Assembly: GCA_963704435.1 (NCBI GenBank)
Contig: OY969902.1
Location: 200,949 to 264,948 of the forward strand
Length of the DNA stretch: 64,000 bases
Reading direction: 5' to 3'
Source: an uncultured archaeon
GTDB taxonomy: Archaea; Micrarchaeota; Micrarchaeia; Micrarchaeales; CABMGC01
Below, piece by piece: positions 9,014-63,201 of the stretch. Made by a program: the position numbers and the translations under genes. Numbering within the stretch: the stretch's first letter is position 1; every line of letters begins with the position of its first letter. Under the pieces are notes generated by a model. That model had not been told where the DNA came from. It saw nothing but the letters and a program-made list of their open reading frames with translations, and ran no database searches.

Positions 9014-9787
9014 TCACTTCTTTCCCTTTGCCGGCTTCTTTTCTTCCTTTGCCGGCTTCTTTCCCTTCATCGCGGCGTACGCGACCACGACCACGATTAT
9101 CAGCACCACTACGATTATCGTGGAATACATCACGGCGGAGCCGCTAAACATCGTTACGGGCGCCGTGCTTGCGACCGTTGTGGGCGCAGTTGTCGGAACC
9201 GTTGTCGGAACGGTGGTCGGAATTGTCGTTGCGACCGTGGTTGCAGGCTGCGTAGAAGCCAGCAATATCAGCTTTACCACATTCGTGTTGCTCGCGTTGA
9301 CATTCTTAGTCGTATAAGAGTTGGCCGCGGTCAGGTATGTGCCATTCAGGATGGACCTTGTCTGCGTAACGTTGTACAAGGTCAACGTCGCTTGATACGG
9401 CACCTGGGATTTCGTTTTGTAGATGATGTTATTCTGGTTCGCCGCGGTAACCGCCGAGTCCGTCGTATTAAGCGCCCTAGCAAGAGCCGCGGTGTTGTTG
9501 AGGCAGTTGTTCAGGGGGTTGGACCGGTTTGATGCGACAACTTGCGTGCACCTGCCAGTGGTTACACTCGGGAATATGTTCGGGTCGTATACGCCAATCC
9601 TCACCAAATAAGTCGTGGTAAGCACATTTCCTACGTTATTTGGAAGCAGACTGTCGCGGGCGGTATTCGGCAATACCCCTTGCAGCAGCCCGTTTACGCC
9701 ATTCGTTATCCCTAGCTGGGTCTCAATAGCGCTATGGCCCGGAGAATAGTAGTTTATTTTAATGGATTGATTGCAGGCCACTGAAGT
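9014..9787 (-). pseudogene. C-terminal fragment of a single-module surface-glycoprotein paralogue, split by an IS insertion
   Basis: The translation (ACNQSIKINYYSPGHSAIETQLGITNGV...TGRCTQVVASN.SNPLNNCLNNTAALARALNTTDSAV...) aligns with the second half of each module of 6812..8815. It ends in a Thr-rich linker plus TM. The frame continues exactly into 10847..11238 once the IS and one target-duplication copy are removed. Confidence 0.8.
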
Positions 9788-12764: not shown

Positions 12765-13619
12765 TCATTTCACATCCTTGTCGAACAGTTCCTGCAGGGG
12801 GTTGTCAAGCTCGCGCATCTCGGTGACGAGTATGCCCTTCTGTACGATCCTCTTCAGCGCGAGCCCCGCCTCCTTGGGGTTCGAGACCGTGAGGACGTAG
12901 TATCCCCCTTCTCCCTTCTTTGCGTCAACTATTCCGGTTATGTCTTTCGAGGCCCTTATGCCGATCCTGTAGCTCTTGGAGCGCACGTTCTCTATCTTGT
13001 CGAACATCGTGAGCCTCCCGCCCTTGATGAGTATCAGGTTCCTTCCTATGTCGGTCGCCTCGTACAGGTTGTGCGACGAATAGAGCACGAGCTTGTCCCT
13101 GCTCAGCTTGAGCACCGCATCCCTTATCTCCTTTGAAAGCCTAGGGTCGAGGTTTGCGGTGGGCTCGTCGAGAAGGTAGACGTCCCTCTCCTTGAGGAAG
13201 ACCTTCGCTATCGACACCCTCTTCTTCTGCCCCTGCGAAAGGTCTGATACCCTCCTGTCCCTGAGCTCCTGGAGGCCAAGCGTGCCTATCGCGAGTTCGG
13301 GGTCTCCGCCCTCCATGCCCGCGTAAAACCTGAGCGCATCGTATACGGTCATCTCCTCCGGCAGCGCGTTGTAGTGCGAGAGGTAGTTTATGCTGCTGCG
13401 CAGCTCCTTCGTGGACCCTATCTCCTTGCCGTCCAGCAGGATCTTGCCTGACATCGGCTCCAATATTCCAGCGATTGTCCTGAACAGCGTTGTCTTGCCC
13501 GCCCCGTTGGGCCCCAGGACAACGTATACCGACGATTCCTTCGCCGTAAAGCTGATTCCATGAAGCACCGGTTTCCCGTCGTAGCCGGAATCGACGCCTT
13601 TTAATTCTAAAGTATGCAT
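12765..13619 (-). CDS. ABC transporter ATP-binding protein
   Basis: Walker A GPNGAGKTT, ABC signature LSQGQKKRVSIA and Walker B VYLLDEPTANLD are all present. Confidence 0.9.
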   Translation of the reverse strand: MHTLELKGVDSGYDGKPVLHGISFTAKESSVYVVLGPNGAGKTTLFRTIAGILEPMSGKILLDGKEIGSTKELRSSINYLSHYNALPEEMTVYDALRFYAGMEGGDPELAIGTLGLQELRDRRVSDLSQGQKKRVSIAKVFLKERDVYLLDEPTANLDPRLSKEIRDAVLKLSRDKLVLYSSHNLYEATDIGRNLILIKGGRLTMFDKIENVRSKSYRIGIRASKDITGIVDAKKGEGGYYVLTVSNPKEAGLALKRIVQKGILVTEMRELDNPLQELFDKDVK

Positions 13620-13679
13620 CTAGCCACGTTGCTATAACTATCACCTAACGACATATTAAAGATGTGGAGGGATTCACAC

Positions 13680-14738
13680 TAGGGAGTTGACATTTACATT
13701 CAGTCACCTCGTCAAATACAAACCCCTTCACATCACGTATTCGATCAGGTTTGCGAGGAGGCAGGAAAACACGTGAATCCTGACCTTCTTTATGCCAACG
13801 AACCTGTTCTTTGCAAGCCCGAACAGCTCCTTCAACCTTGCAAAGAGGTGTTCGACGGCCCACCTCTTCCCATACTCCGGATCCTTCGGGTTCTCTGTTT
13901 TCAGATACTTGTTGCCGCTTCTCGGGATTACTGGAGTTAGGCCATCGTCGCGCAACTGCATCCTTATCGCTGATGCGTGGTACTGTGCATCCGCAATGTA
14001 TTTTGACTGATACTGCAGTTGAAAGGTCTTCTTTACTCTGTCGTACAGCGGCCAGAACATCTTCTTGTCGTTTGTGTTCGCAGGTATGACCTCAATTGCA
14101 AGTGGCGTTTCCGTCTCGGCTTCTACGATTACATGTGGTTTATAACCGAAGAACAGTTCTTTCCCATTGCCGAGGTTTTGCATCAGTTGTTCTTTCCTTG
14201 ACGGAGTTCTGTGCCCCCACCTCGCATCGCCGTCCTTGCGCGAATATGCGAAGACGTCGGTACTGTCCTGCACGATAAGTCGCAGTTGCCTTGATTTCAT
14301 CCGGTCCTGCACTATCCAGTTGTGCAGTTCCGCAAACATCTCCGCATCCGACCGTTCCCGCACCTTCGAGAAGGTCGACGGATGCGGCTTCCTCGTGTAA
14401 CCAAGGATCTTTCCTATCGGGTCCCTGACTAGGAACTCCGCGAGTCTTACGTCGGTAAGATTCTCATGTTGCCTTATCGCAAAGGCGACAAGATGCTTCG
14501 CAAACTTCCTCGTATGCCCGAACTTCTGCACGATCACCTTAGCCGCAGCCCAAACTTCTATTATTTTATTCTTTAGTTCATAGATTTCCATTGTCTTCAA
14601 CTCCTGGCAAGGCGGTCGATACACTGACGTATCGGCCGTCCAGGAGACTCACGACCTTATTTTCCCGACGATAAAAAGAGAAGAGAAAACCCCCGAAATC
14701 ATATTGGGTGCAAAGACTTAAAATTTGTCAAGTCCCTA
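13680..14738 (-). mobile_element. IS4/IS5-superfamily insertion sequence, copy B (1059 bp)
   Basis: Same sequence and ends as copy A. It is flanked by TTCACAC (13673-13679 and 14739-14745). The repeat becomes 8 bp (ATTCACAC) if the terminal A is counted with the duplication. It is inserted 60 nt upstream of the ABC ATPase start. Confidence 0.9.
13728..14624 (-). CDS. DDE transposase (IS4/IS5 type)
   Basis: The 298-aa translation is identical to 9836..10732. Confidence 0.9.
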   Translation of the reverse strand: MYRPPCQELKTMEIYELKNKIIEVWAAAKVIVQKFGHTRKFAKHLVAFAIRQHENLTDVRLAEFLVRDPIGKILGYTRKPHPSTFSKVRERSDAEMFAELHNWIVQDRMKSRQLRLIVQDSTDVFAYSRKDGDARWGHRTPSRKEQLMQNLGNGKELFFGYKPHVIVEAETETPLAIEVIPANTNDKKMFWPLYDRVKKTFQLQYQSKYIADAQYHASAIRMQLRDDGLTPVIPRSGNKYLKTENPKDPEYGKRWAVEHLFARLKELFGLAKNRFVGIKKVRIHVFSCLLANLIEYVM

Positions 14739-17239: not shown

Positions 17240-17415
17240 CTACAGCAAAAGTACAGTTCCCCAATTCAGCCCTGAGAGTGATACCTGACTGAATGTGCGA
17301 TGCCCTACATATTTTTCCATGCAGTCACCGACGTCTATATATAAAAGCTATCTATATATAGCTTCTGATGGAAAACGAGCGTATGAGCTACAAATCAAGA
17401 AAACGCGCATTCTAG
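17240..17415. repeat. Intergenic repeat family, copy 2, with a truncated AbrB-like gene 5' end
   Basis: It has the same core as copy 1. The minus-strand micro-ORF is MEKYVGHRTFSQVSLSGLNWGTVLLL (17240..17320). An AT-rich palindromic TATA region (CTATATATAAAAGCTATCTATATATAG) follows. Then comes ATGGAAAACGAGCGTATGAGCTAC..TAG, homologous to the first ~12 codons of the AbrB-like gene at 24653. Confidence 0.7.
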
Positions 17416-17495
17416 GGACTCTGAATTACGGCTAGGAAATAGTCTGCGAATATGCTTATTAAGGCGGAAAACCATAATACAATCTAGTGCATAAG

Positions 17496-18074
17496 ATGCC
17501 CGAGAACTCCGGCGCTATGGTGGTCTTTGTTGGTGGGCCAAGGGCATCCGGAAAAAGCGCAGTTTTGAGCGAATTGAAGGCTTCAGCGCGAGCATCAGGA
17601 ACGGAAATCGAGATAGTGCCGATGTATAGCGTCTTGTCGCAGATTGGGCGAGACCGGTACAACAAAACAATAGGGGAGATCAATGCAGAGGCCCCGCTTG
17701 CACAAAGCATACAGATCGAGATCATAAAGCGGGTGAAGACATCGCCTGCCCAGGTCGCCCTGCTAGACGGCCATTATCTGAGCCAGGATGGTAAATCTAT
17801 GACGCCAATCTACCGGACTGACCTTGCTGATTACTCTGGGCTATTATCCGCTCACATAGTTGTGACTGCGCCGCCAGAAATGATACTTGAAAGAAGGCTC
17901 AACGACGAAGATTGCGGACGGAATCTGGATATTGGACTGATAAAGACGGAACAGGATGGAGAGATTGGTGAGGCAAAGAGAATAGGCAAGCTTTATGATA
18001 CGCCTGTCTATGTTATAGAAAACGTAGATATGAAAAGAACGGTCGCCGATTTCAGGAGCTTGCTTCATGTTTGA
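17496..18074 (+). CDS. P-loop NTPase, nucleotide/nucleoside-kinase-like
   Basis: Walker A is VFVGGPRASGKSAV and a Walker B-like strand is VALLDGHY. The size (~190 aa) and layout resemble adenylate-kinase-fold enzymes. The track start at 17487 is GTG; the first ATG is at 17496. Confidence 0.6.
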   Translation: MPENSGAMVVFVGGPRASGKSAVLSELKASARASGTEIEIVPMYSVLSQIGRDRYNKTIGEINAEAPLAQSIQIEIIKRVKTSPAQVALLDGHYLSQDGKSMTPIYRTDLADYSGLLSAHIVVTAPPEMILERRLNDEDCGRNLDIGLIKTEQDGEIGEAKRIGKLYDTPVYVIENVDMKRTVADFRSLLHV

Positions 18075-19470
18075 TGAGCGGAACGCGATTGAATTCGTCC
18101 TGGGATGTGGGAAAGTGGAGGACAATCAAAAAATAGATAAGCGTAGAACTCTGCTAGTGGGGGAACGCGATATAAAAGAACTTGACGAAGGCGGCAGGGT
18201 CCACTGCGTCTCCAAAAAGACAGGACTGCAGGTAAATTCGCTAACCCACAAAGAGATCGGGCTAAGATCAAGAGGATTGGCTATTTTGGATTCAGGCAAC
18301 AAGATAGTCTACCAAGAAGACAACTCGCACCTGCAGCACTTCTTTCCCATACTTATCAGGGATTTTGCGAAATTGGCATACGAATATACCAAGTCTAACA
18401 AGCCGCTGCCCATAGTGTCAGTAGATTCGCACGATGTAATAGGCTGCGATTTTTGCTGCCAGGATTGCCTCTCCGGCGGCGGACTGCTCGTCGCGAAATC
18501 AGGCATAAACAAAGGCTTCAGCCCAGCACTGAAGAGCTACATACACATACTTTCCGAGATAGCTGAATACTCGAAGCGGAGAGGCGTAGATTCGGTAAGA
18601 TTTGAGCAGTCCGGAGAGGGAAACCCGGACCTCTATGCGCTCCGCCCAAAACTCATAAAAGAAGCTAAGAAGCGCCATAACATGCAGACGGTGTATGTGA
18701 CGACAGGAAGCCAGATGAGCGAGGAACTGGCCGAGTCTCTCGTAGATAATGCGGCGTTCATACGAATAAGCTTCCCTGGAATAGATCCGCGAACGTACGC
18801 ACTATACTCCAACCAGAAGAAATACACTTTCAACGATTCTATCGCACGGCTGAAGAAATTGATCAAGATGAGGGCCGAGGCGGGGCGTGAACAGGAATTG
18901 CTAATAGGGGCCCGGGTTGCGCTTAGGCCCGAGGAGGAGCTCCTGTACTACGACTTCGGCAAGCTTATGAAGAAGATCGGAGTGGATTGCGTACAACTGG
19001 TGAAAATTCTGGTTCCAAATGGCCTGAAATGCCGGAATTTCCCAATTTCTGCCACTGCGATACGCCAGCTGGAAAAGCTCAAGACGCTGTCTGATGAGCA
19101 CTTCTGCGTAGCCATGCCTAATGTGCTAGACTACCTGTACTATGCGAGATACATAAAGGACAGGAGTAACTTCACGGACGTGTGCTACAGTTCTAGAATT
19201 CAGCCAGTCCTGACAGGCAACGGGCTCTTCGTATGCACAAAAAGCGAGGTCATGTACTCCAAAGAATACCTTTTTGGCAGCTTCAAGGGCAAAAAGGGCG
19301 AGATAGAGCAGTTTCTCAGCAAGAAGAATGTTGACAAAGTGACCAAGAACGTGCCTGCGTCATGCTACACCTGTGGAAACATATTCGACAACCTGCTCTT
19401 TGACAAGATGGTCAAGCTCGCCCGCCAAGCCAAAGGACCGCTATCATTTTATGAGGTCATATCTTACTAA
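18067..19470 (+). CDS. Radical SAM enzyme with a C-terminal Cys-rich (SPASM/twitch-like) module
   Basis: It has a CxxxCxxC motif in IGCDFCCQDC and a SAM-binding GGE-like motif, SGEGNPDL. The C-terminus reads CYSSRIQPVL..FVC...SCYTCGNIFDNLLFD. It overlaps the upstream gene by 8 nt. Confidence 0.7.
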   Translation: MFDERNAIEFVLGCGKVEDNQKIDKRRTLLVGERDIKELDEGGRVHCVSKKTGLQVNSLTHKEIGLRSRGLAILDSGNKIVYQEDNSHLQHFFPILIRDFAKLAYEYTKSNKPLPIVSVDSHDVIGCDFCCQDCLSGGGLLVAKSGINKGFSPALKSYIHILSEIAEYSKRRGVDSVRFEQSGEGNPDLYALRPKLIKEAKKRHNMQTVYVTTGSQMSEELAESLVDNAAFIRISFPGIDPRTYALYSNQKKYTFNDSIARLKKLIKMRAEAGREQELLIGARVALRPEEELLYYDFGKLMKKIGVDCVQLVKILVPNGLKCRNFPISATAIRQLEKLKTLSDEHFCVAMPNVLDYLYYARYIKDRSNFTDVCYSSRIQPVLTGNGLFVCTKSEVMYSKEYLFGSFKGKKGEIEQFLSKKNVDKVTKNVPASCYTCGNIFDNLLFDKMVKLARQAKGPLSFYEVISY

Positions 19471-19481
19471 AAGGTCGCAAA

Positions 19482-20456
19482 ATGGTCAAACTTAAAGAAC
19501 TGGGGAAAAAGCAGGAACTCTTCGAAGAGATGCCAGCAGATAAGATGAGGGTTTTCAGCAGCCCTACGCTATGGCTTGCCTCCGGGAATGTCCTACTCCA
19601 TAGCTGGCCAAATACGCAGCCGTTCTACTTCTATCCCTTCAGTGTACTGGATTTCTTAAATAACAATCGGAGAGAGCTGAGGATTATAGATTCAAGTCGT
19701 ACGGCAGCGATAGAGGCAATTAAGAAATTGAAAGGCTCAAAGGTCCATTTTGAGGGTTTGAAACCCGACCTGATCGATTTCGCCCTAAAGTCGGGCCACA
19801 AGGTGTCCGTCATATGCGATCTGGAAGAAATAAACCCCAGCAACCTAGAGACCTTATCGTGCATAGACTTTCTTATAGTGAGGATAAACTCAGCTAATCA
19901 GGACCTGTCCAGGTTAAAAGGCATACCTAATAAGAGGCTCCTGTCTGGAATAAGAGTGTATCTGTCAAGCGATAGCAATGACTTTACTTCTTCAGCCAAA
20001 GAGGCCAAAAGACTGGGCTTCGACTTTATCCACGTGTCCAAGAGGCTCGTAGGATCAAGGCAAGCATCCTTTCCGGAAAGCCAGAAGGACAGGATTCACA
20101 ACCTGCTGGGCTTCCAGTCAAAGACGTTCAAGGTCTTGCTCCCGAAGAACCTTAACACGGTTTTTAATGAAAAATTCGCTATAAGCGATGAGTATGATAA
20201 TTCGAGCAACTGCTATTTTTCGCGATTCAGGAGAGTTTTATACAAAGACAAATTTTATCCCTGTTATACCCATTCAATAGTTGAGAAAGGAAAATTCTCT
20301 TCGGAAACGTTAACTGGATTGAGGAAAAAGTCGAAACTGTTCGGAAAGGGCTGCACGGACTGCGCATGTATCTATGAAAATGACCTATTCGAGGACATTT
20401 CCAAGAGCTCGAAAAGAATCAAGAACAAAAGGTTTTTACTTGGTTATGACTATTAA
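19482..20456 (+). CDS. Hypothetical protein sharing the Cys-rich C-terminal module of the preceding radical SAM enzyme but lacking CxxxCxxC
   Basis: 324 aa. The C-terminus CYFSRFRRVL..YPC...GCTDCACIYENDLFE is clearly homologous to the C-terminus of 18067..19470. I saw no canonical radical-SAM cluster motif in the N-terminal two-thirds. Confidence 0.6.
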   Translation: MVKLKELGKKQELFEEMPADKMRVFSSPTLWLASGNVLLHSWPNTQPFYFYPFSVLDFLNNNRRELRIIDSSRTAAIEAIKKLKGSKVHFEGLKPDLIDFALKSGHKVSVICDLEEINPSNLETLSCIDFLIVRINSANQDLSRLKGIPNKRLLSGIRVYLSSDSNDFTSSAKEAKRLGFDFIHVSKRLVGSRQASFPESQKDRIHNLLGFQSKTFKVLLPKNLNTVFNEKFAISDEYDNSSNCYFSRFRRVLYKDKFYPCYTHSIVEKGKFSSETLTGLRKKSKLFGKGCTDCACIYENDLFEDISKSSKRIKNKRFLLGYDY

Positions 20457-20491
20457 TAAATTAGGATGAGAATAGAATTTGGTGATGCGAT

Positions 20492-20947
20492 ATGGAAGAA
20501 AATGATAGGTTCGGCCTTGGGGTTTTCGTGTGCTTCTTTAACAAAGACTATTCAAAAACCCTGTTATTGTTCAGAAACGCTGAAAAAAGGGCGCGCTGGG
20601 GCGCGGATTGGGGAAATGTCGGAGGCGTAGTCGAGCTTGGAGAAACGACGGTACAGGCTGCTATAAGGGAGGTTATTGAGGAAATAGGGATAAATCTGAA
20701 GCCATCGGACCTGAGTCTCATTTACATCAAAGAGACGCTGAATTTCATTCCACACATACAGGCAGTGCATTTCGTCTACACCACCACAATGGATGAGAGC
20801 CGAAAGATTAAATTGAATAGCGAATCGGATAGGTACGAGTGGTTTGAAGTCTCAAATTTGCCGGAGAGGATGCTTGATTCAAAGAAAGATATGCTAATGT
20901 GGAGAGACCTGGCAAAGTCTGGCCGCAAGATAGCGCAGAACAAATAG
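20492..20947 (+). CDS. NUDIX hydrolase
   Basis: The Nudix box GGVVELGETTVQAAIREVIEEIGI fits GX5EX7REUXEEXGU. A Shine-Dalgarno-like GGTGAT lies 5 nt upstream of the ATG. Confidence 0.85.
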   Translation: MEENDRFGLGVFVCFFNKDYSKTLLLFRNAEKRARWGADWGNVGGVVELGETTVQAAIREVIEEIGINLKPSDLSLIYIKETLNFIPHIQAVHFVYTTTMDESRKIKLNSESDRYEWFEVSNLPERMLDSKKDMLMWRDLAKSGRKIAQNK

Positions 20948-20955
20948 GTGAGTGG

Positions 20956-21780
20956 ATGCGCGGTTTGATGCGCACTCCGATTAAATATCCCGGATCAAAG
21001 AATTATTACGTAATCAAACACGTCTTGCAAATCCTGCCGCCACATGCAGTTTTCATAGAGCCCTTTTGCGGAGGAGCTTCAATATTCTTCGCAAAGCCCA
21101 AAGCAAAGAGTAATTGGTTAAATGACATAGATGCAGAGCTAATAACCACATACAAAGTATTGAGGGACAATCCAGATGGATTGATTGAAGCTATAAATGG
21201 CGCGGAAATCTCCAAGGAGAATTATCGCCATTTCAAGATGGATTTTAAGCCTAGAAACGATCTTGAAAGAGCCCTAAGATGGCTATACTTGGACCTAAAT
21301 TCTTATCCAGATACGATAAATCTAGTGCCTAAATTCTTAAAATTTGACGATACCACTCACACAAATATGCGCAGACTTACAGAAGAGCTGCATAGGGCTT
21401 CCAGAAAGCTGCAGCATGTCGATCTGACTGTAATGGATTTTGCTCATACAATAAAAGAAGCACCGGAAGGTGCATTTCTATTTATAGACCCTCCATACTC
21501 CCTGCACAACTCCCCCTCTAAAGCTAAAAAATACCTAAACAAATTCGGAAGGAAAGGACACACAAAACTTGCAACCTTACTTAGAGACAGGTTTAACGAG
21601 ATTAAATTCATGCTTTGCTATAGGGCAGATTCCGAAGCGGAAAGCCTGTACACTATAGATGAAAAGATGTACAAAAAAGTTTTCAGATTCAAGGCAGAGC
21701 ACCCTATATTAAAAGGCAATAAATTAAAAATGAAAAAAGAAGAATATTCAGAGATGGTTCTTACGAATTATAAGATATAG
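20956..21780 (+). CDS. DNA N6-adenine methyltransferase, Dam/D12 class
   Basis: It has the N-terminal IKYPGSKNYY, the SAM-binding FIEPFCGGASIFF and the catalytic FLFIDPPY. I prefer the start at 20956 (AGGTGA 4 nt upstream, just after the NUDIX stop) over the overlapping track start at 20899. Confidence 0.85.
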   Translation: MRGLMRTPIKYPGSKNYYVIKHVLQILPPHAVFIEPFCGGASIFFAKPKAKSNWLNDIDAELITTYKVLRDNPDGLIEAINGAEISKENYRHFKMDFKPRNDLERALRWLYLDLNSYPDTINLVPKFLKFDDTTHTNMRRLTEELHRASRKLQHVDLTVMDFAHTIKEAPEGAFLFIDPPYSLHNSPSKAKKYLNKFGRKGHTKLATLLRDRFNEIKFMLCYRADSEAESLYTIDEKMYKKVFRFKAEHPILKGNKLKMKKEEYSEMVLTNYKI

Positions 21781-21797
21781 GTCATCTAGTGAGGGGT

Positions 21798-23690
21798 ATG
21801 AAATATGGGGCGGATAGGCAAGGACGCCAGAAGCATCCTATACCTAAGAAGGTCGTTAAGATTGCTGTTCTAAAGAGTGAAGGCAATCTTAGTGCCGTTT
21901 CCCCAGGGGATATCAAAACAAGGCAAAGTTTGCTTTTTCAACTGCACAAACTTCCTGATGAAGCCGTACTACACATAAGAAACTTCATGCCCCAAGTCGG
22001 TTGCCCTAATAGGTGCTCTTTTTGCTCACAAAGTTCTGGCAAAACGATCATAAAAATCTCGGATAGGGGCCTAAGAAACCTCATTTCGGCGCTCAAAACC
22101 GCTGCGATTGAAGCGTTGGCTAGAAGAGAGGGCGCGAGTATAGGCTCATTGGTAAATGACGATGGGAGCCTCAACAAGGCGTTTAAGCTTCCGGAGAAGG
22201 GTTTGATTGGCAACCGTCTAGATGGAGGAGAGAGCAGGGTGTACCCCTTTTTAGATACGGACATCTGTTCTTATTCTGACCTTTACGATTATGTAAAGTA
22301 TCTCAATGAAGATTTAGGTGTATCAATCTCGATATCCACAGTCGGATATTCCAGATACAATAAACAGCTACAGAGAATGCATGAAAAAATAATAAAGGAA
22401 TTTCCACAAGCCATAGCTAGTCTGGCATTTTCAATAACACCATATACCTATGGTTGGACAAAAGCGGCGGAAAAATCCGGCAAATACAGCAGGTCAGATT
22501 TCAATCAAGATATGGCTAATGCTATAAAAACGTACGCGCCTCTAATCGAGAGGCTAGGTGCGAGTAGGAAGACCTTCTGTGTATCTCTCCGGTTTAAACC
22601 AGAAGTGTCTGCAGAAAGCAGGCAACTTGATGAAGGTCATGTGAAAGGCCACCACTTTATCCATTCGGGACCGCATCTCCTCTTCAGTATTGCAAGGAAT
22701 GTAAACTTGGAACCTTCTGAAGTCATAGGTGTGGAAGGCAGAATACCTTTGTTCAACAATCTGCCCCAACCCTATGTCTTAGTCACTTCAGACAACCAGC
22801 TTAACACAAGAACATGGCATGCCGCTGTTTTGGAACTCATTACAAAATACGATGAAGGGCTTCTCAAAGGGAGAAAAGATATGCCCATAAGAACAAAGCA
22901 AGTCTACAAATGTGAAAACGAGGAAGGCATATACTATGCTGCAGATCCGACTTTCAAAGAAGGGGGCCATTTTGAAGCTCTACACTTCTATGCTCAGACA
23001 GAAAGGCGGAGGGTGAGCGGATACAATAATGCGGAACGCACCTTTCTGAATACCATACTCGATTTTAAAAAGGAAAAGGGAATTTCGAGACGTGATGAAT
23101 TTCCAGATGCAACGTGGGCCGATGTTAATTCGGTAGTGGAAAGGCTAACTAAAAAAGCAGTAGCTGCTGGCAACTACGATATACTTCACAGAAATCACAT
23201 CGAAAAGGATATACTGCCTATAGTGGAGTCATATGTGGAAATATTAAAGCACTCTGACCTTAGTCCCTCCTTCTTATTTCATCCTCACTTTACTGATGAT
23301 ACTGGCCAAATAGTAAATCGCGGAAGAGCCTTAGCCCAATTCCATGGTCTAGCTGGAAAAGAAGATGTACCTATAACGCCTAACGAAGAAAGAACATTTG
23401 GGCGGGCAGGGCATCCTGCCCTTAACGGAGTTGAATACAGACTCTCTCCAAATCCTGATAATGGAGTGTGCGCTAATAGTATAGCGAAAAGGAACAGTGA
23501 AAACCCACAATTAATCAAACACAGTTTAATACTAGCTCCAATAGACTACAATCCTATGATTCGATATAATGACTATGAGAGAGCCGTGGTAATAGAAGAC
23601 GTAGAATTGGTAGCAATCCCCTTCGAACAATTTTATGCCCTGAAACTACTGCCAGGCATAACCCTTAAACGACAGATATCACACAATTAG
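21798..23690 (+). CDS. Large radical SAM enzyme of unknown subfamily
   Basis: It has a CxxxCxxC motif in VGCPNRCSFCSQS. At about 630 aa, the long C-terminal region has no motif I recognise. The track start at 21789 is GTG; the first ATG is at 21798. Confidence 0.65.
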   Translation: MKYGADRQGRQKHPIPKKVVKIAVLKSEGNLSAVSPGDIKTRQSLLFQLHKLPDEAVLHIRNFMPQVGCPNRCSFCSQSSGKTIIKISDRGLRNLISALKTAAIEALARREGASIGSLVNDDGSLNKAFKLPEKGLIGNRLDGGESRVYPFLDTDICSYSDLYDYVKYLNEDLGVSISISTVGYSRYNKQLQRMHEKIIKEFPQAIASLAFSITPYTYGWTKAAEKSGKYSRSDFNQDMANAIKTYAPLIERLGASRKTFCVSLRFKPEVSAESRQLDEGHVKGHHFIHSGPHLLFSIARNVNLEPSEVIGVEGRIPLFNNLPQPYVLVTSDNQLNTRTWHAAVLELITKYDEGLLKGRKDMPIRTKQVYKCENEEGIYYAADPTFKEGGHFEALHFYAQTERRRVSGYNNAERTFLNTILDFKKEKGISRRDEFPDATWADVNSVVERLTKKAVAAGNYDILHRNHIEKDILPIVESYVEILKHSDLSPSFLFHPHFTDDTGQIVNRGRALAQFHGLAGKEDVPITPNEERTFGRAGHPALNGVEYRLSPNPDNGVCANSIAKRNSENPQLIKHSLILAPIDYNPMIRYNDYERAVVIEDVELVAIPFEQFYALKLLPGITLKRQISHN

Positions 23691-23701
23691 GCTAGATATT
23701 T

Positions 23702-24490
23702 ATGCTAAGGATATACGGCACCGTTTATGATAATGCCGATTTAGCCGAAAAATGTCTGAGGTCCATTTCAAAATTAAAGCCATACCGGCTCTATGTAGTT
23801 GACAATTATTCTACAGATAAAACATACGAAATACTTAGGAGACATAAGGAAGTGAATATAAAGAGGCTAAAATGCTCAAGAGGAAAAGGCAGGGACGTGG
23901 CATTGAAAATGCTGCTTAGCGAAGCGAATCCCGAAGACCCCGTAATGTACATAGACTTTGACGTGATTTTCGAGCCCGGTTTCATAAAAATACTGTCAAA
24001 GCGAATTAAGCAGATTAAAGACAATGAAATGTACAATCTTTTTAATGGTCTTAGCACCGCTAAAACAAACAGGGCACTGCCTTGGCGCGATCTAAATTCG
24101 GCCGAGGACTGGGAAAGATTAGCAAGGGCAAAAAGTGAAGGCATACGCATATTGACAATCAGAAATGATATCAAAAATATCAGAAAATGGGTGAATAACC
24201 GGGAGAACGTCGGCTATAAAGTATCTGATAGAGAGTGCAGATATGTAACTAATAAGTTGGGTCTGGATATTAGAGTATTTAAGATGCTGATAGACAGCGA
24301 AAGAGGCAGGGCCCATAAGTCCTTTCACGAATTCTATGAAATCTCAGCTAACAAGAATATAAAGAGTTATTTGCTCTTTTTAGCTGCATACGTATGCGGG
24401 CGTACGTTGGGGATCTATTCATACGATGATAAAAGAAGCAACAAAGAATATGTGCTCGATTTTAAAATATCGAGCTTGTGGAAATTCTAA
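23702..24490 (+). CDS. Glycosyltransferase family 2-like protein
   Basis: 262 aa. The N-terminal Rossmann-like GT-A pattern is present (IYGTVYDNADLAEKCLRSI...YVVDNYSTDKTYEIL, later YIDFDV). It is the last gene of the AT-rich operon. Confidence 0.55.
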   Translation: MLRIYGTVYDNADLAEKCLRSISKLKPYRLYVVDNYSTDKTYEILRRHKEVNIKRLKCSRGKGRDVALKMLLSEANPEDPVMYIDFDVIFEPGFIKILSKRIKQIKDNEMYNLFNGLSTAKTNRALPWRDLNSAEDWERLARAKSEGIRILTIRNDIKNIRKWVNNRENVGYKVSDRECRYVTNKLGLDIRVFKMLIDSERGRAHKSFHEFYEISANKNIKSYLLFLAAYVCGRTLGIYSYDDKRSNKEYVLDFKISSLWKF

Positions 24491-24550
24491 TATGCAGGAT
24501 CTCTCCAAGTTTAATTTCCTTGAAGGACTATCTTAAAAATCTCTCGAAAA

Positions 24551-24652
24551 TCAGGTCTGGACTGAGAGGGCTGCCGGAGCGAATGTACGATGCCCTACGT
24601 GGTTTGCCATACATTTCACCGTTGTCTATATATAATGGCTATCTATATATAG
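24551..24652. repeat. Intergenic repeat family, copy 3 (most diverged), promoter region of the AbrB-like gene
   Basis: Sequence is CTGAGAGGGCTGCCGGAGCGAATGTACGATGCCCTACGTGGTTTGCCATACATTTCACCGTTGTCTATATATAATGGCTATCTATATATAG. The minus-strand micro-ORF is MANHVGHRTFAPAALSVQT (24551..24610). Confidence 0.65.
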
Positions 24653-24880
24653 ATGACGATGGAAAACGAGCCCGTAAGCTACCGGTCGAGGCGGACCCAC
24701 AAGCCGGTCGCCAGGGATTGCAGCAGGGTCATGCGGCTGTCGAACGGCCAGTTCCTGGTGACCGTGCCAAGGGAGATCACCAGATGGAAGCACATAGGCA
24801 AGGGCACGCTGCTCAAATGGTCCGATGCCGGACCCGGAAGGGTTATCTTGGAAGTCGTGCAGGGCCTGGACGATGCATGA
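24653..24880 (+). CDS. AbrB/SpoVT-like (MazE/VapB-type) DNA-binding protein
   Basis: 75 aa. The segment RLSNGQFLVTVPREITRWKHIGKGTLLKWSDAGPGRVILEVV matches the swapped-hairpin AbrB pattern. I prefer it over the overlapping 146-aa ORF at 24478..24918. Confidence 0.55.
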   Translation: MTMENEPVSYRSRRTHKPVARDCSRVMRLSNGQFLVTVPREITRWKHIGKGTLLKWSDAGPGRVILEVVQGLDDA

Positions 24881-24963: not shown

Positions 24964-25641
24964 CTAACTAGGTAGCGTTTGGTTCGACAGGCTCCAGAGG
25001 AATCTCTCTATTGCTACTATTCCTTCTCCAGCAGCTTCGGCACCTACTGAAGATATGGCATCACCAGTCACTTCTCTTCCTGAAATGTAAGGCGCCGGAG
25101 TCTGATTGTTAGTTACGAATCCGCTTATTTCTTTGTCCATCACATATCCGGCGATAGTTTTAGTAGCCTCTTTGGCAAGATTAATGGCATCCTTCTCCTT
25201 GAGTGTGCCTTTCTCATACTCCTCCTTAAGCTTCATCGCCTCGAATGCAATCTTTCCGAACTCGTAGGCAGCGCAGGCCACTGTGAAGATGAGCATAGGA
25301 CCCGGGAAGGCCACCGCTAAAGCCTGTAGAAGAACTTTCTTTGCCACGCTAAGCGCTACATTCCTGAAGAAGGCGTTAACAGGGACCTCTTCAGTCATTG
25401 TGTTAGTTTTAGGACTCCATGAAGTGGCTCTTTTGACATATGAGACAGAAGTCTCGTGTCCCCTAAACGAAACGGATGCACTTTGTGTTGTAAAATCAGC
25501 TAATTTCTTCACGCCTTTAGGTAAATGAGCCTTAACCCTGCGGCTTTCTTCCGAATCATCATCACCTCCACCGAATCCGCCACCACCTCCACCTCCTCCT
25601 GAATATGATTTCTCTCCTTTACCTCTGTTTCCGCCACCCAT
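24964..25641 (-). CDS. Hypothetical protein with a poly-Gly/acidic N-terminus and a central hydrophobic segment
   Basis: 225 aa. It starts MGGGNRGKGEKSYSGGGGGGGGFGGGDDDSEE and has the hydrophobic stretch LLQALAVAFPGPMLIFTVACAAY. The gap to the upstream gene is 2 nt, so they probably form an operon. Confidence 0.5.
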   Translation of the reverse strand: MGGGNRGKGEKSYSGGGGGGGGFGGGDDDSEESRRVKAHLPKGVKKLADFTTQSASVSFRGHETSVSYVKRATSWSPKTNTMTEEVPVNAFFRNVALSVAKKVLLQALAVAFPGPMLIFTVACAAYEFGKIAFEAMKLKEEYEKGTLKEKDAINLAKEATKTIAGYVMDKEISGFVTNNQTPAPYISGREVTGDAISSVGAEAAGEGIVAIERFLWSLSNQTLPS

Positions 25642-25643: not shown

Positions 25644-26657
25644 CTACACCTTTGCTAGCAAAATGTCCTTCTTCTCATAGTCCGGAAAGCAGTCCGAAAG
25701 CTTCCTGTGAGCTTCGAGCAGCGCTAGAGCTATGTGCTGGTCTTTCAGATTCTTCATTACGCACTCTATTGTCGGCTTGCTGCGGTATCTCTGAGGCAGT
25801 TTGACCGGATTACTAAGAGGTGATGAAGTAGATGGACTCACAGGCTGACCCTGATATCTTCGGGTCCATTTGAGAGTTTTCTCTTTTCCACCTTTGAATA
25901 TGCGTCCCTTGAATGCAGCAACAAAGTGGCTCTCCACCATATAGCCATTGGCAAAACCAAAGTCTTTAAACGTCTTGAGTGACCCTCCACCGCAAATCAG
26001 CAGCCAGGGCACTCTTCTCGATATCTCTCTGGCGAAACCTATCGCCTGCGTTAGTTCGCGCGCTGACCCTTTGTACAAGTAATCCCCGGCATGGAAAGCG
26101 AATAGACCAATGCCCAACTGTTTCAGGCATTCGATATACCAACCGAGCCTTTCATAGTTGTTTCCCTTGACGAGCCCGATAGGAATGCTGTTAGGGCAGG
26201 CCTTCTTGAGATAAACGGCTCCCCTCAGCATCTTTTCCAGATCACCATCACAGTCTTCATCGTTATATGTCTCTCCGTCTGGCGTAAGGTAGTAGTCAGG
26301 CTTAATGTCGTTTATGATATTTGCATGCTTCTTCCACGACACACACGCTATGACTCTGTTCCTGGCGATGGAGGACAAAAGAACATTGCAACCATGGTAC
26401 TCTAGCTTATCGTGGATTCCGATGGCTCTTAGCTCCTTGAGCATGGGTGTATCTATGCTTCCATCTCTCTTCACCATGTCCTGAAGACGCGCCACGACTC
26501 CCGGAGCGGGGGCGTATCGGCAAGGATTGTGGGTTAGAGGCTCGCCAAGCTTCTCCACAGGCCATATGAACTTCCTTAGGCATTGATCGATGGGGTGGAA
26601 ACGTGCGTCTACCCAAGAAGCCGCTATTTCGTCCATTACAGACCCGTTTCCGGACAT
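25644..26657 (-). CDS. TIM-barrel protein resembling tRNA-guanine transglycosylase / DpdA-type transglycosylases (tentative)
   Basis: 337 aa. The order of motifs resembles the TGT family: DIKPDYYLTPD, then IPIGLVKGNNYERL (compare f-G-i-v-Q-G-g-x-y-x-d-L-R), then LFAFHAGDY, then WLLICGGGSLKTF...FANGYMVESHFVAAFKGRIF (compare h-l-f-G-x-G-x-P ... G-v-D-x-F-D ... A-r-x-G). I saw no CxCxxC zinc motif, so this is a weak call. Confidence 0.35.
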   Translation of the reverse strand: MSGNGSVMDEIAASWVDARFHPIDQCLRKFIWPVEKLGEPLTHNPCRYAPAPGVVARLQDMVKRDGSIDTPMLKELRAIGIHDKLEYHGCNVLLSSIARNRVIACVSWKKHANIINDIKPDYYLTPDGETYNDEDCDGDLEKMLRGAVYLKKACPNSIPIGLVKGNNYERLGWYIECLKQLGIGLFAFHAGDYLYKGSARELTQAIGFAREISRRVPWLLICGGGSLKTFKDFGFANGYMVESHFVAAFKGRIFKGGKEKTLKWTRRYQGQPVSPSTSSPLSNPVKLPQRYRSKPTIECVMKNLKDQHIALALLEAHRKLSDCFPDYEKKDILLAKV

Positions 26658-29629: not shown

Positions 29630-30448
29630 ATGTCAAATTCGGAACAACAAAAGTTCAAAAAACAAGTTATTGCAGATTTTGATAGAGGTTCTAATGCTGC
29701 TGAAATTATCACCAAATATAACATACAAAACACACCCAACAGAGAAGAAGGTAAACCTACTCGCAAAACCATCTATAATTGGAAGAATGAATACGATGCG
29801 AAAAAGTCTATAGACAGCCCAAAGGTATTCAGACTGAGCAAGAAGAAGCAGATGGAAGTCAAAAAAGAATTTGAAAATATGTTTTCGGTCTTTAAATCAA
29901 AGAAAATCTCCGATATGCGTGTAGCATTAAGGAGCATAGACAACTATATGAAAAATTATGGTTGCACTCCTAACGAGACGCAAATTGATTTGCTGATACC
30001 TCACATTAAAGATGTCGAACTCAGGTACGATATCCTGCGAACTATATTCGGAGTAATGGAAGAAAATCCCAAAATCTTTAGAAAAGTCAATGAACAAAAA
30101 TTATGTAAAAAATTGCATGCGCTACTCAAGGAATACGAGCCGAATACTTACAAGAAACCAACCGTGGAATACCTGTTTTTTATCCTAGGGCACTATAACG
30201 ATCCTATCATAGTGGACAGATTAGTGCAAGATGCCGAACAATGTAAGCCAGAGCTGCTTAGTCGCATTAGGTCTTACTATGCACAAAAGTACTCCGTTAA
30301 AGTAATTGAAGAATGCAGGAATGAGCTATTCGATGCTGCCCAAAAATTGCAAAGAGAAGGTAAAAGTGATGCTGCTGATTTTATACAACAGATAGTGGCT
30401 ATAGCAAGCAAGAATGCAAGAAATCCCCCTGCTCGATTTAAGCCTTAG
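29630..30448 (+). CDS. Hypothetical protein with an N-terminal HTH-like segment
   Basis: 272 aa from the ATG at 29630 (MSNSEQQKFKKQVIADFDRGSNAAEIITKYNI...). The rest is helical. The track start at 29519 would read through the IS200 hairpin and the palindrome. Confidence 0.5.
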   Translation: MSNSEQQKFKKQVIADFDRGSNAAEIITKYNIQNTPNREEGKPTRKTIYNWKNEYDAKKSIDSPKVFRLSKKKQMEVKKEFENMFSVFKSKKISDMRVALRSIDNYMKNYGCTPNETQIDLLIPHIKDVELRYDILRTIFGVMEENPKIFRKVNEQKLCKKLHALLKEYEPNTYKKPTVEYLFFILGHYNDPIIVDRLVQDAEQCKPELLSRIRSYYAQKYSVKVIEECRNELFDAAQKLQREGKSDAADFIQQIVAIASKNARNPPARFKP

Positions 30449-31037
30449 ACTTCTCCCTTGAATGCGCATTCTTTTCCAACGCCACAAAATCGCTGGCATC
30501 CACGATTCTGCCCACGCAGCGCTCCACAAATATGATTGAGCTTTCTTGGCCCAGCGGTCTGCTGGTTGAACAGCAATCCTTTATCATGAAAACGTTGTAC
30601 CCCCGATGCACGGCATCGACGCCAGTCTCCCTCACACAGCAGTCAGTCTGTTCACCTACCAGATAAATATCGGTTATTTTCAGTTCCTTTAGTAACCCAT
30701 CCAGCCCGCTTCCACAGAAACCACTGTATCCATGCTTCTCAAGGATGTGGTCGCTCTTTTCCGGTGCCAGCTCTTCGATGGTCAGCGCGCCGTCTGTGCC
30801 CTTCATCGACTGGCGTCTATGGGCACTGTGTCCTATAAACTTGAAAATTGGGTCGTTTTCGGTAAACGCGCTGTTTACGTAGATTACTGGAATTCCCTTT
30901 TTGTGCGCTGCCTCTATCACTTGTTTTATATTCCCAATCAGCCTTTCCCTTTCGTCCACGGCTACCAGCGGCCTTTCTCCATAGACGTAGTCTTTCACCA
31001 TGTCCAAGACAAGCAGCGCTTCCATCAGCTCAACCAT
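30438..31037 (-). CDS. Isochorismatase-family cysteine hydrolase (nicotinamidase-like)
   Basis: Motifs are ALLVLDMVKDY, KHGYSGFCGSGLDGLLKELKITDIYLVGEQTDCCVRETGVDA, with the catalytic Cys within DCCV. Confidence 0.8.
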   Translation of the reverse strand: MVELMEALLVLDMVKDYVYGERPLVAVDERERLIGNIKQVIEAAHKKGIPVIYVNSAFTENDPIFKFIGHSAHRRQSMKGTDGALTIEELAPEKSDHILEKHGYSGFCGSGLDGLLKELKITDIYLVGEQTDCCVRETGVDAVHRGYNVFMIKDCCSTSRPLGQESSIIFVERCVGRIVDASDFVALEKNAHSREKSKA

Positions 31038-31202: not shown

Positions 31203-32393
31203 TCATCGTCTATTTTCCAACACCCCATGAACCGCATCCCTGCTCTTCGGATCGAGCTTCTCCATCAGCAGGTTGACCGCCTTCATCATGTCGTCCAGTT
31301 TCTGCCTCACCGACTCCAGCTCGCTGGCCTCCTCCACTGGGCTAACGTCCAAGGGGCTGTGGCACTTGCTGCAGTACTTGGCCGTCATCTCATTTACCTC
31401 CTGGCACTTGTAGCAGACCTTCACCGTGAGCCTCGGCTTCACAGGCTCTCCCCTGCCGATCGTTATGCCGTTCGCCTTCATCACGGCGTCGTCCACGTCC
31501 TTTCCGCTCAGGTGCACGTAGACCGCCGCCATCTGGCTCGCCCCGGTCCAGCCGAAGTACATCTTGAGCTGCTGCTCGGTCATGCTGTTCGCATATAGGC
31601 TCGCCCTGCTGTGCCTGAAGAGGTGCGGGTGTATGCGCTTCCTTATGCCCGTCCTCTCCTTCAGGTCCCCGAGCAGCTTCCTCACATTAGGGTAGTCGAA
31701 GGGATTCCCGTGGGACGTGAGTAACAGGGCTGATTCCGGCGGCAGGCCCCTGCCGCGCTCGTTGAGGTAGTTGGACAGGTACGGAACCGAGAAGACGAGC
31801 GTCACCCGCCTCTTGCCCGTCTTGCCGTCCACCATCGCGTAGCTTGGGCTTTCCGCGTTCAGGACGATGTCCCTTACCTTCAGGTTCAACAGCTCCCCTA
31901 CGCGCATCCCTGTGTCGTACAGGAGCGATATTATGGCCCTGTCCCTCTGGCTCCTGCACGCGTTTATGAGCCCGGCCACCTCGTCCTCAGTCAGGAGCTC
32001 CTCGGGCAGCTTCATGGACTCCATCTGGCCGACTTTGATCCACTTGACTATGGAAGGATAGTCTTCTGCCGAATAGAGCCACTTGTAGAAGCTCTTCAGG
32101 GTCTGCTTTATCTTCCTCAGGCTGTTCACGGCCTTGCCGCTCTTGTTGAGGTACAGGACAAGGCGCTCTATGTCTTCCTTCGTGGCCTTCTTGGCGTCCT
32201 TGCCTAGGTAGGGGAAGACGGCGCGCAGCTCCCTTATCACCCTGGCGACGGTCTGGGGCTTCCTGTTTAGCAGGCCCAGCTTCGCGCCGAACGCGAGAAC
32301 GTAGCCCCTGTTGGGCTCGGAGAGCTCCTCCTCTACCTTCCTGACCTGCATGGCCAGTATGTACTCGCCCTTGTGCAGGTAGTCCCTTTTCAT
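31203..32393 (-). CDS. Tyrosine recombinase/integrase with a C-terminal zinc-ribbon extension
   Basis: 396 aa. It has an N-terminal SAM-like core-binding domain, a catalytic region (DTGMRVGELLNLK, HPHLFRHSRASLY, AAVYVHLSG) and CYKCQ...CSKCH at the C-terminus. Its start lies 68 nt from the 3' end of tRNA-Thr. Confidence 0.85.
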   Translation of the reverse strand: MKRDYLHKGEYILAMQVRKVEEELSEPNRGYVLAFGAKLGLLNRKPQTVARVIRELRAVFPYLGKDAKKATKEDIERLVLYLNKSGKAVNSLRKIKQTLKSFYKWLYSAEDYPSIVKWIKVGQMESMKLPEELLTEDEVAGLINACRSQRDRAIISLLYDTGMRVGELLNLKVRDIVLNAESPSYAMVDGKTGKRRVTLVFSVPYLSNYLNERGRGLPPESALLLTSHGNPFDYPNVRKLLGDLKERTGIRKRIHPHLFRHSRASLYANSMTEQQLKMYFGWTGASQMAAVYVHLSGKDVDDAVMKANGITIGRGEPVKPRLTVKVCYKCQEVNEMTAKYCSKCHSPLDVSPVEEASELESVRQKLDDMMKAVNLLMEKLDPKSRDAVHGVLENRR

Positions 32394-32460: not shown

Positions 32461-32532
32461 AGCCCTGAGAGGGAATTGAACCCCCGACCTACTGCTTACA
32501 AGACAGTCGCTCTACCACTGAGCTACCAGGGC
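32461..32532 (-). tRNA. tRNA-Thr (anticodon UGU)
   Basis: Manual cloverleaf: GCCCTGG-TA-GCTC-AGTGGTA-GAGC-G-ACTGT-CTTGTAA-GCAGT-AGGTC-GGGGG-TTCAATT-CCCTC-TCAGGGC-T. It is 72 nt and CCA is not encoded. Confidence 0.85.
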
Positions 32533-63052: not shown

Positions 63053-63150
63053 TACAGGGCTTTAGAGTGGTGTACTGCTCCTCTGTCATGCAACTCACGT
63101 AACTATTCCTTTGCATGGCCACATATTTATGCCTTGCGTGTGGGCCAGCT

Positions 63151-63201
63151 TTGTCCATAAAGTCCCTCTTGTCCATAAAGTGTCAATCTTGTCCATAAAG
63201 T
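63151..63201. repeat. Three direct repeats of TTGTCCATAAAGT spaced 18 and 20 bp
   Basis: TTGTCCATAAAGT occurs at 63151-63163, 63169-63181 and 63189-63201. This is in the intergenic region between 63204..64000 and 62216..63052. Confidence 0.8.

Follow-up and report, generated by a model that had tools for sequence, protein, structure and literature searches.

A conserved, uncharacterised seven-gene archaeal operon with two predicted radical-SAM enzymes and a nucleotide theme

What does a compact set of seven genes, two of which are predicted to encode radical S-adenosylmethionine (radical-SAM) enzymes, do on a mobile island of an uncultured archaeon? The genes lie in a 64,000-nucleotide stretch of contig OY969902.1 (assembly GCA_963704435.1, positions 200,949 to 264,948; the whole stretch is called the window below) from a member of the Micrarchaeota, and we refer to them as g1 to g7. 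They encode a kinase-like P-loop protein (g1), a radical-SAM enzyme (g2), a paralogue of g2 that lacks the cluster motif (g3), a NUDIX hydrolase (g4), a Dam-type DNA methyltransferase (g5), a second radical-SAM protein (g6) and a family-2 glycosyltransferase (GT2; g7). An initial annotation, made from the letters alone, had proposed them as a candidate module for nucleic-acid modification or defence. We conclude that the operon is real, conserved and uncharacterised, that it includes two protein families without a name (g3 and g6), and that it has a coherent nucleotide theme. Most likely it makes a non-standard nucleotide, for which we considered use as an antiviral compound, as a DNA mark or in a surface sugar.

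The operon and its conservation

At least five other archaeal lineages carry the gene set as a unit. All seven genes are present in loci L007, L103–105 and L106–107; L004/L067 carry them in the order g1-g2-g3-g6-NUDIX-Dam-GT2; and L001 holds six of the seven, without the GT2. The proteins of these relatives are 32–73% identical to those of the window. Because the same set recurs, once reordered, in other archaeal contigs, the operon is, judged from sequence, a selected and coherent unit, and no chance adjacency. The glycosyltransferase is kept at the operon's end in L004, L007 and L103–L107, and the methyltransferase is co-inherited with the rest, being 36–47% identical to its copies in a DPANN variant described below, in parallel with g2 and g3. 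The relatives are flanked by genes for AbiEii, a Schlafen/AlbA_2 ATPase, Fic and TnpB. In L103–L107, genes for an aldo-keto reductase and an AAA_28 (NadR-kinase-like) protein are conserved directly downstream of the operon in two lineages, one of which adds a PNP_UDP_1 nucleoside phosphorylase and the other a metallophosphoesterase; all of these are absent from the window.

Within the window, the seven open reading frames (17496–24490) are co-oriented and tightly packed, with junctions, from g1 to g7 in order, of -8, 11, 35, 8, 17 and 11 nt and with GGTGA sequences 5′ of 20492 (g4) and 20956 (g5). Public gene calls on identical contigs start g1, g5 and g6 where the initial annotation had placed them (17496, 20956 and 21798), and its description of a packed, co-oriented block stands. 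Its remark that the block is rich in AT is likewise correct: the GC content of the operon is 43.9%, compared with 58.4% in the backbone at 33–62 kb, and a wider low-GC stretch at ~14–31 kb (45.4% GC) contains it. All of the motifs that had been listed are present in the translations (Table 1), and the kinase, radical-SAM, NUDIX, Dam-type and GT2 assignments agree with the profile matches of g1, g2, g4, g5 and g7.

Table 1. Coordinates of the operon genes, the flanking repeat and the integrase in the window
Feature	Position	Strand	Evidence
g1, P-loop nucleoside/nucleotide-kinase-like protein, 192 aa	17496–18074	+	Walker A GGPRASGKS; Pfam AAA_17 (1.5e-6)
g2, radical-SAM enzyme, 467 aa	18067–19470	+	GCDFCCQDC with EQSGEGNPD; Pfam Radical_SAM (6e-7)
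g3, cluster-less g2 paralogue, 324 aa	19482–20456	+	hhalign and BLASTP against g2
g4, NUDIX hydrolase, 151 aa	20492–20947	+	Pfam NUDIX PF00293 (2e-15); Nudix box GX5EX7REUXEEXGU matched by GVVELGETTVQAAIREVIEEIGI
g5, Dam/DpnM-type N6-adenine DNA methyltransferase, 274 aa	20956–21780	+	FCGGAS, DPPY; MethyltransfD12
g6, rare-family radical-SAM protein, 630 aa	21798–23690	+	GCPNRCSFC; family alignment
g7, family-2 (GT-A) glycosyltransferase, 262 aa	23702–24490	+	Pfam Glycos_transf_2 (9e-11)
Upstream repeat copy	17272–17415	+	Palindromic TATATATA promoter-like core (17333–17361) and 15-codon truncated remnant (17368–17415)
Downstream repeat copy (24562–24682) and intact 75-aa gene (24653–24880)	24562–24880	+	Repeat comparison
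Tyrosine integrase	31203–32393		Adjoins tRNA-Thr (32461–32532)

Beyond its Walker motif, g1 weakly matches NCBIfam models of nucleoside/nucleotide kinase, adenylate kinase and uridine kinase, and a PDB search gave no sequence relative of it. The nearest solved relatives of g4 are MTH1, NudB, NudI and MutT, which are of the nucleoside-triphosphate (NTP) pyrophosphatase type. For g5, PF02086 (6e-24) and PADLOC MTase_II (8e-39) gave clear matches, TIGR00571 scored 103 bits, just below its cut-off of 114.85, and the nearest structures were M.DpnII and Dam; the protein has the domain and the FxGxG and DPPY motifs of the D12 class. A restriction partner for g5 was sought: no nuclease domain is encoded within the operon, nor in L001, L004, L007, L019 or L103–107, and we rejected a type II restriction-modification system, there being no cognate endonuclease in the operon or in the relatives examined. 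The depletion of GATC is also uninformative on Dam function, at 0.70–0.72 in the operon, the whole window and the backbone, and 0.62 in the wider island.

Two radical-SAM families and the genes beside them

The cluster motif CxxxCxxC of g2 consists of C127, C131 and C134; it is followed by GEGNPD and by four conserved C-terminal cysteines (C373, C390, C433 and C436), and the protein also has an N-terminal beta domain. When the AlphaFold2 (AF2) model of g2 (pLDDT 90.9) was compared with the PDB by Foldseek, the best match was DesII (8hzv; E 4e-13, TM 0.53, 14% identity), after which came the SPASM/twitch maturases CteB, SuiB and anSME, viperins (~6e-9) and BlsE (7vob; 2e-7). The matches to mouse and fungal viperins (E 6e-9 to 1e-7, TM on the target 0.6–0.67) reflect a likeness that is common to many radical-SAM enzymes and is unspecific. 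Viperins themselves convert CTP, UTP or GTP to a 3′-deoxy-3′,4′-didehydro-NTP. As to sequence homology with DesII or BlsE, a profile of 35 g2 homologues found no PDB chain at E ≤ 0.4. Pfam SPASM does not match g2 either, though the four C-terminal cysteines are conserved and are kept in g3.

The initial annotation had called g3 a paralogue of g2 that had lost its cluster, and this claim not only held but could be extended. BLASTP aligned g3 with g2 across the C-terminal 210 residues (E 1e-8), and the profile-profile comparison by hhalign covered 304 columns (probability 99.7%, E 2.5e-26). By deletion, g3 has lost both the CxxxCxxC loop and the GEGNPD SAM motif, and it keeps the C-terminal cysteine domain. 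No family in Pfam, PADLOC or NCBIfam accounts for g3, which always adjoins g2 or lies near it in 28 loci. These comparisons identify g3 as a full-length paralogue of g2 and, probably, its non-catalytic partner.

The g2 family is rare and patchily distributed across domains: it was found in 54 of 185,579 GTDB species genomes, with hosts among DPANN archaea, gut Bacilli, Mollicutes, Clostridia and Muribaculaceae. In ~25 Clostridia genomes, g2 stands alone. In the DPANN variant, g2 is followed by a radical-SAM enzyme of 260 aa, g3, NUDIX, then Dam (three loci), a P-loop protein of 184 aa and, in some cases, another NUDIX; the Bacilli variant reads NUDIX, a g3-like gene, a guanylate-kinase-like gene, a metallophosphoesterase, two DUF402 copies, g2, a small radical-SAM enzyme and a GT2. 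The small radical-SAM enzyme that takes the role of g6 in both variants is MoaA-like (3e-15), though the match is confined to its first 145 residues and its 56 bits fall short of the cut-off of 284; neither MoaC nor other molybdopterin genes were found near it. MoaA, to which it is most similar, is the guanosine triphosphate (GTP) 3′,8-cyclase and acts on GTP; g6 is unrelated to the small enzyme beyond the cluster loop. We ruled out the idea that g6 is an enlarged form of this small enzyme, since hhalign aligned the two over 38 columns round the cluster loop only (probability 27%).

Across these arrangements, the g2-g3 pair is accompanied by three unrelated P-loop kinases (g1, the 184-aa DPANN type and the guanylate-kinase-like protein), by three kinds of nucleotide phosphohydrolase (NUDIX, metallophosphoesterase and the two DUF402 copies), and by two unrelated GT2 lineages. 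No homology was detected between the GT2s or between the kinases of the archaeal and bacterial variants, and they look like non-orthologous recruitments. We therefore conclude that the g2-g3 pair has acquired a kinase and a nucleotide phosphohydrolase more than once and, less certainly, a glycosyltransferase likewise; the GT2 of the Bacilli may belong instead to the adjacent galactofuranose genes. Among 105 proteins flanking g2-g3, Pfam identified PPDK 4–5 times, DUF4422 four times, UDP-galactopyranose mutase twice and a few toxin-antitoxin genes.

The second radical-SAM protein, g6, is assigned by its alignment to a rare family that no curated library names, and NCBIfam holds no family for it. 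Its relatives share the invariant motifs PQxGCxNxCxFCSQ, YLDxDI, STVGYSR, ITPYTYGWT and FTxDTGxIxNxG, whereas Pfam Radical_SAM matches the cluster loop only (0.0024). The AF2 model is of moderate quality (pLDDT 75.6), and it yielded no significant match, by fold or by sequence, in the PDB and no fold match in BFVD. A word-indexed search of 5.8 billion proteins gave nine relatives, and an exhaustive profile search gave 199 clusters at 50% identity. Their contexts were read from 30 metagenome loci and from individual locus look-ups. L006 combines g6 with NUDIX and a deoxynucleoside kinase (dNK), and L005 has a thymidylate-kinase-like (Tmk-like) gene, a GreA-like factor and a NADAR-g6 fusion. NADAR is fused to g6 in five proteins, at either protein end, and NUDIX at the C-terminus of one.

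In ~17 bacterial metagenome loci (L072–L087; for example L075, 7974–13695), a divergent upstream gene pair precedes g6, a Tmk-like kinase, a GreA-like factor and an HD/phosphodiesterase (PDE) protein; a CYTH neighbour was seen once. This module looks like an undescribed system in its own right. One gene of the divergent pair encodes a WYL-domain protein and the other a 334-aa protein without a family match, and we take the pair, by its arrangement and size, to resemble PafB/PafC. The GreA-like proteins retain the acidic tip motif DxxEN, which is needed for transcript cleavage, as aligned to what we take to be the Escherichia coli GreA sequence.

Three further g6 contexts were recorded. The sole match in a search of plasmids was a truncated g6 fragment beside a NUDIX gene, on two Streptomyces plasmids; in Streptomyces globosus plasmid NZ_CP030864.1 (L108, 6071–7224) it is a 172-aa C-terminal fragment (38% identity), annotated as hypothetical, with the NUDIX gene directly after it. 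A remote branch of the family (23–26% identity) occurs in human gut metagenomes (L090, L091 and L093–L095), always with an AsnB/QueC-like amidotransferase before g6 and usually also with a diphthamide-synthase-like PP-loop ATPase. Finally, the 39%-identical homologue in L003 lies in a large cluster with an epimerase/dehydratase, a GT4, an acyl-CoA dehydrogenase, a carrier protein, an AMP-binding enzyme, two thymidylate-kinase-like genes and ABC exporters.

Taken over all of these loci, both radical-SAM families stand repeatedly beside enzymes of free nucleotides, namely four kinase lineages of nucleoside-monophosphate (NMP) or dNK type, MutT-type NUDIX, DUF402, HD, CYTH and NADAR.

Flanking repeat and genomic island

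The threonyl-tRNA synthetase encoded in the window has its closest relatives in Micrarchaeia (64%), and the host is probably a DPANN archaeon with a small genome. The operon was horizontally acquired and lies on a mobile island. The low-GC stretch holds IS200 and DDE transposases, including two identical insertion-sequence (IS) copies; directly upstream of the operon is a gene for an AAA_14/DUF4143 ATPase, a strong PADLOC PDC-S01 candidate (2e-109), and downstream is a HEPN-like Hypoth_Ymh gene. Together with the tyrosine integrase and the tRNA-Thr gene, these genes bear out the earlier description of an integrase- and tRNA-associated island among defence-type genes.

The operon had also been described as bracketed by diverged copies of one repeat element. 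The repeat is real: it is ~130 nt long, its copies (17272–17391 and 24562–24682) are 77–82% identical, and its 29-nt core occurs exactly twice in the window, with none expected. It is not the terminus of an element, however. It consists of a TATA-rich palindromic promoter and the first ~15 codons of the 75-aa gene at 24653–24880, the counterpart of which, in the upstream copy, is a truncated remnant that reads MENERMSYKSRKRAF*. We accordingly ruled out IS or miniature inverted-repeat transposable element (MITE) ends and an att site. Since the repeat is a duplicated promoter and gene start, the cassette seems to have been inserted at the start of this gene, or to have recombined through it, and the upstream copy is likely to be the promoter of the operon. 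The 75-aa protein looks like a small DNA-binding protein of AbrB/SpoVT type, to judge from its residues; family searches gave no match. No repeat of ≥14 nt derived from the tRNA-Thr gene was found elsewhere in the window, and thus no att duplicate. Nor was a riboswitch that could name the metabolite found near the operon or in eight Bacilli loci.

Several other features of the window were noted. The two copies of the DDE_Tnp_1 IS (~9787–10846 and ~13679–14738) are in the same orientation and identical across 1059 bp; they enclose an ABC-type ATPase gene (12765–13619; mad3/AriA-like in PADLOC) and two unknown genes, and may form a composite transposon. Convergent with the operon is a two-gene unit on the minus strand (25644–26657 and 24964–25641), neither gene of which is conserved beside the operon elsewhere. 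The 225-aa product of the second gene has a glycine-rich N-terminus and no family. We considered the 337-aa product of the first as a DpdA-like transglycosylase tied to the operon, and found this unsupported: PADLOC TGT gave only 18.9 bits, with no support from Pfam, NCBIfam or the PDB. A gene of the isochorismatase/nicotinamidase family lies a few kb from the operon both here (30438–31037, minus strand) and in L001 (15185–15769), with E 1e-12 between the two; with the NADAR and NUDIX links of g6, it hints at NAD/ADP-ribose chemistry, and coincidence is possible. At 1697–1831, on the minus strand and directly upstream of a >560-aa minus-strand reading frame that runs off the window start, a full-length match to the Rfam cobalamin riboswitch RF00174 (38.6 bits, against a gathering threshold of 31.5) is unexpected in archaea, the host being of Micrarchaeota type. 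Lastly, the GC content falls sharply to 32% at 63001–64000.

What the operon may make

As the initial annotation had supposed, the gene combination fits no named system. PADLOC gave weak pVip and generic methylase matches only, two of the proteins are without an NCBIfam family, and full-text searches of the literature for the combination found no description. We tentatively favour, as the leading candidate but at less than an even chance, a pathway that tailors free nucleotides by a viperin-like logic and is probably used in conflict. In such a pathway, g1 would phosphorylate a nucleoside or NMP towards the triphosphate, and g2, probably as a heterodimer with g3 and alongside g6, would remodel the sugar or base of the nucleotide by radical chemistry. 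The MutT/MTH1-type g4 would strip pyrophosphate, either limiting self-poisoning or giving a monophosphate intermediate, so that kinase and NUDIX together may set the phosphorylation state of the free-nucleotide substrate; g7 would glycosylate the product or its final acceptor. The methyltransferase travels with the operon in archaea and is assigned no role in the pathway. The non-canonical nucleotide would poison the polymerase of an invader. We favour a conflict role because the seven-gene form is island-borne beside defence-type genes, and because the g6 module of bacteria comes with WYL regulators and a transcript-cleavage factor. Such partners would be understandable if RNA polymerase were stalled by the product, and the intact acidic tip of the GreA-like proteins is consistent with their freeing host RNA polymerase that a terminating nucleotide has halted.

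The linkage of viperins to NMP kinases is documented, and viperin fusions to a triphosphatase or cyclase domain have been reported (doi 10.1101/2023.09.13.557418). Like viperin or pVip with its CMPK2-type NMP kinase, the operon links a radical-SAM enzyme to a nucleotide kinase; g2 superposes on viperin (E ~6e-9, TM 0.65 on the target), and the island has defence-type neighbours. Unlike it, the operon has two catalytic radical-SAM enzymes with a cluster-less paralogue, NUDIX, GT2 and Dam; g2 possesses the N-terminal beta domain and the four-cysteine C-terminal domain, both of which viperin lacks; and the C-terminal domains of g6, within 630 aa, are without a structural match. By this comparison, the operon would work most like viperin with its NMP kinase, yet it scores below the viperin family thresholds. 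A second relevant parallel is Ophion, a validated anti-jumbo-phage system of a radical-SAM enzyme, a PHP phosphatase and a phosphoribosyltransferase, for which nucleic-acid interference has been proposed (doi 10.1101/2025.09.30.679545). There too, a viperin-related but distinct radical-SAM enzyme is combined with enzymes of nucleotide metabolism, whereas our operon has neither PHP nor phosphoribosyltransferase and its relatives occur in archaea and Firmicutes, not in Gammaproteobacteria.

Several observations weigh against a viperin-like, conflict-related pathway. NCBIfam NF038283 (viperin_w_prok) requires 180 bits, and g2 reaches 20.7 and g6 gives no match; PADLOC pVip and pVip-kinase gave ~24 bits, for g2 only, and PADLOC recognises none of g3, g6 and g7. 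In structure, g2 comes closest to DesII, an enzyme whose substrate is a TDP-sugar. GT2 and the DNA methylase have no role in known antiviral-nucleotide systems, and the pathway as drawn leaves both unexplained. Moreover, the g2-g3 clusters of DPANN and gut Bacilli lie among housekeeping genes (RtcB, archease, PPDK) and are syntenic across several Bacilli species, with PPDK upstream and DUF4422 and Glf downstream, which looks like a stable physiological trait rather than a variable defence gene and does not have the look of a defence island. The earlier preference for a modification or antiviral pathway over housekeeping metabolism is therefore upheld in part: the partner genes indicate nucleotide chemistry and the setting is an island, but elsewhere the g2-g3 core keeps housekeeping company. 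A role in defence or in DNA modification is thus one that we infer.

DesII and BlsE, enzymes of the desosamine and blasticidin S pathways, both have as their substrate a sugar that is joined to a nucleotide or nucleobase. It is possible, if rather doubtful, that g2 and g3, and perhaps g6, modify a nucleotide diphosphate (NDP)-sugar in the same way, for a glycoconjugate or a nucleoside natural product; GT2 would transfer the sugar to a lipid, S-layer or small-molecule acceptor, NUDIX and kinase would regulate or recycle the nucleotide carrier, and Dam would be a passenger. Of the solved structures, DesII is nearest to g2 in fold (E 4e-13, TM 0.53), BlsE matches too, and the archaeal operon ends with a glycosyltransferase; a different GT2 follows the pair of g2 and the MoaA-like enzyme in >12 bacterial loci, and in several Bacilli DUF4422 and UDP-galactopyranose mutase genes come after it. 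The biosynthetic cluster of L003, with its GT4, epimerase/dehydratase and exporters, points the same way, as do the aldo-keto reductase conserved beside the archaeal operon and the existence of NUDIX enzymes that hydrolyse NDP-sugars, for example GDP-mannose hydrolase. The glycan or small-molecule pathway that the initial annotation had named as its alternative thus stays fully alive. The likeness to DesII and BlsE has its limits: identity is 14–15% with no match at the sequence level, g2 is paired with a degenerate paralogue, and the operon holds no other deoxysugar or peptidyl-nucleoside pathway genes. Against the glycan or small-molecule pathway, the seven genes include no exporter or flippase, and no sugar-1-phosphate nucleotidyltransferase, 4,6-dehydratase or aminotransferase. 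The kinases belong to the NMP or nucleoside class and are not sugar kinases, g4 resembles NTP-sanitising NUDIX enzymes, the partners of g6 (GreA-like factor, WYL regulators, NADAR) are unfit for glycan synthesis, and the co-inherited Dam is no random passenger.

Cellular hypermodification of DNA, in the manner of phage T4, we consider unlikely, although no other reading assigns a task to every one of the seven genes. NUDIX would bring a (d)NTP down to its (d)NMP, the base would be modified at the nucleotide level by the radical-SAM enzymes, and the kinase would recharge it; a polymerase would then incorporate the base, GT2 would glycosylate it in DNA, and Dam would methylate the same DNA, marking or protecting self. 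The established T4 set of dCTPase, dCMP hydroxymethylase, dNMP kinase, glucosyltransferases and Dam is paralleled here in kind: the operon has a pyrophosphatase for NTPs, a modifier at the level of the nucleotide, a kinase of the P-loop class, a glycosyltransferase and Dam. Radical-SAM enzymes are found in phage thymidine hypermodification clusters as well. The catalytic motifs of the Dam-type methylase are intact and it has co-diverged with g2 and g3 across two operon architectures; the partners of g6 that are of dNK or thymidylate-kinase type hint that the substrates may be deoxynucleotides or thymidylate; and the operon lies on an island, as the Dpd and Dnd modification systems do. The T4 likeness ends, however, in that the operon is cellular, its modifier is a radical-SAM enzyme and no thymidylate-synthase homologue, and its glycosyltransferase is of GT-A family 2 and not a T4 alpha- or beta-glucosyltransferase. 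No relative of g2 or g6 was found among 2.9 million viral contigs (IMG/VR), in 50,697 phage genomes (tblastn) or by a fold search of BFVD, which speaks against the pathway, viruses being where it normally occurs; a viral origin was rejected on these searches, and the link to phage-type hypermodification drawn earlier is weakened. The seven genes contain no thymidylate-synthase-like hydroxymethylase and no aGPT-Pplase domain, as in the phage thymidine clusters, no DpdA/TGT, FolE, QueD, QueE or QueC, as in Dpd, and no dedicated polymerase. None of the bacterial variants has Dam, and those DPANN variants that have the MoaA-like enzyme lack GT2. The full version, a non-viral DPANN hypermodification borne on a mobile island, with radical modification in the pool, incorporation, glycosylation by GT2 and co-marking by Dam, we hold to be more doubtful still. 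Least probable, in our estimate, is the repair and sanitation of nucleotides or nucleic acids, in which the radical-SAM enzymes would act in the manner of spore photoproduct lyase and either reverse the damage to a nucleotide or process it, NUDIX would clean the pool, kinase and phosphoesterase would heal ends or recycle, and Dam would serve strand discrimination. PafB/PafC control DNA-damage regulons, and the bacterial g6 operons stand under a PafB/PafC-like divergent pair that includes a WYL protein and contain a GreA-like factor; NADAR domains, which remove ADP-ribose from DNA bases in DarT/NADAR systems, are fused to g6; g4 resembles MutT/MTH1; and RtcB and archease lie beside the cluster in one nanoarchaeal genome. 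That adjacency, however, was observed in a single case and on the opposite strand, a repair pathway has no use for GT2, fold and HMM searches gave no likeness to spore photoproduct lyase or any repair radical-SAM enzyme, and repair genes are not usually so patchily distributed or placed on an island.

Should the tentatively favoured free-nucleotide pathway be correct, and g6 make a nucleotide that poisons polymerases, antiviral nucleotides would have a second radical-SAM route, independent of that of viperin, and the bacterial g6 module would bring with it a built-in rescue of the host RNA polymerase in the form of the GreA-like factor. If the operon modifies DNA or a surface sugar instead, it would add new radical chemistry to those fields. 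The operon also shows that a complex pathway has passed by gene flow among archaea of reduced genome and bacteria of the gut, and it is compact, with expressible bacterial cousins, which makes the question directly testable.

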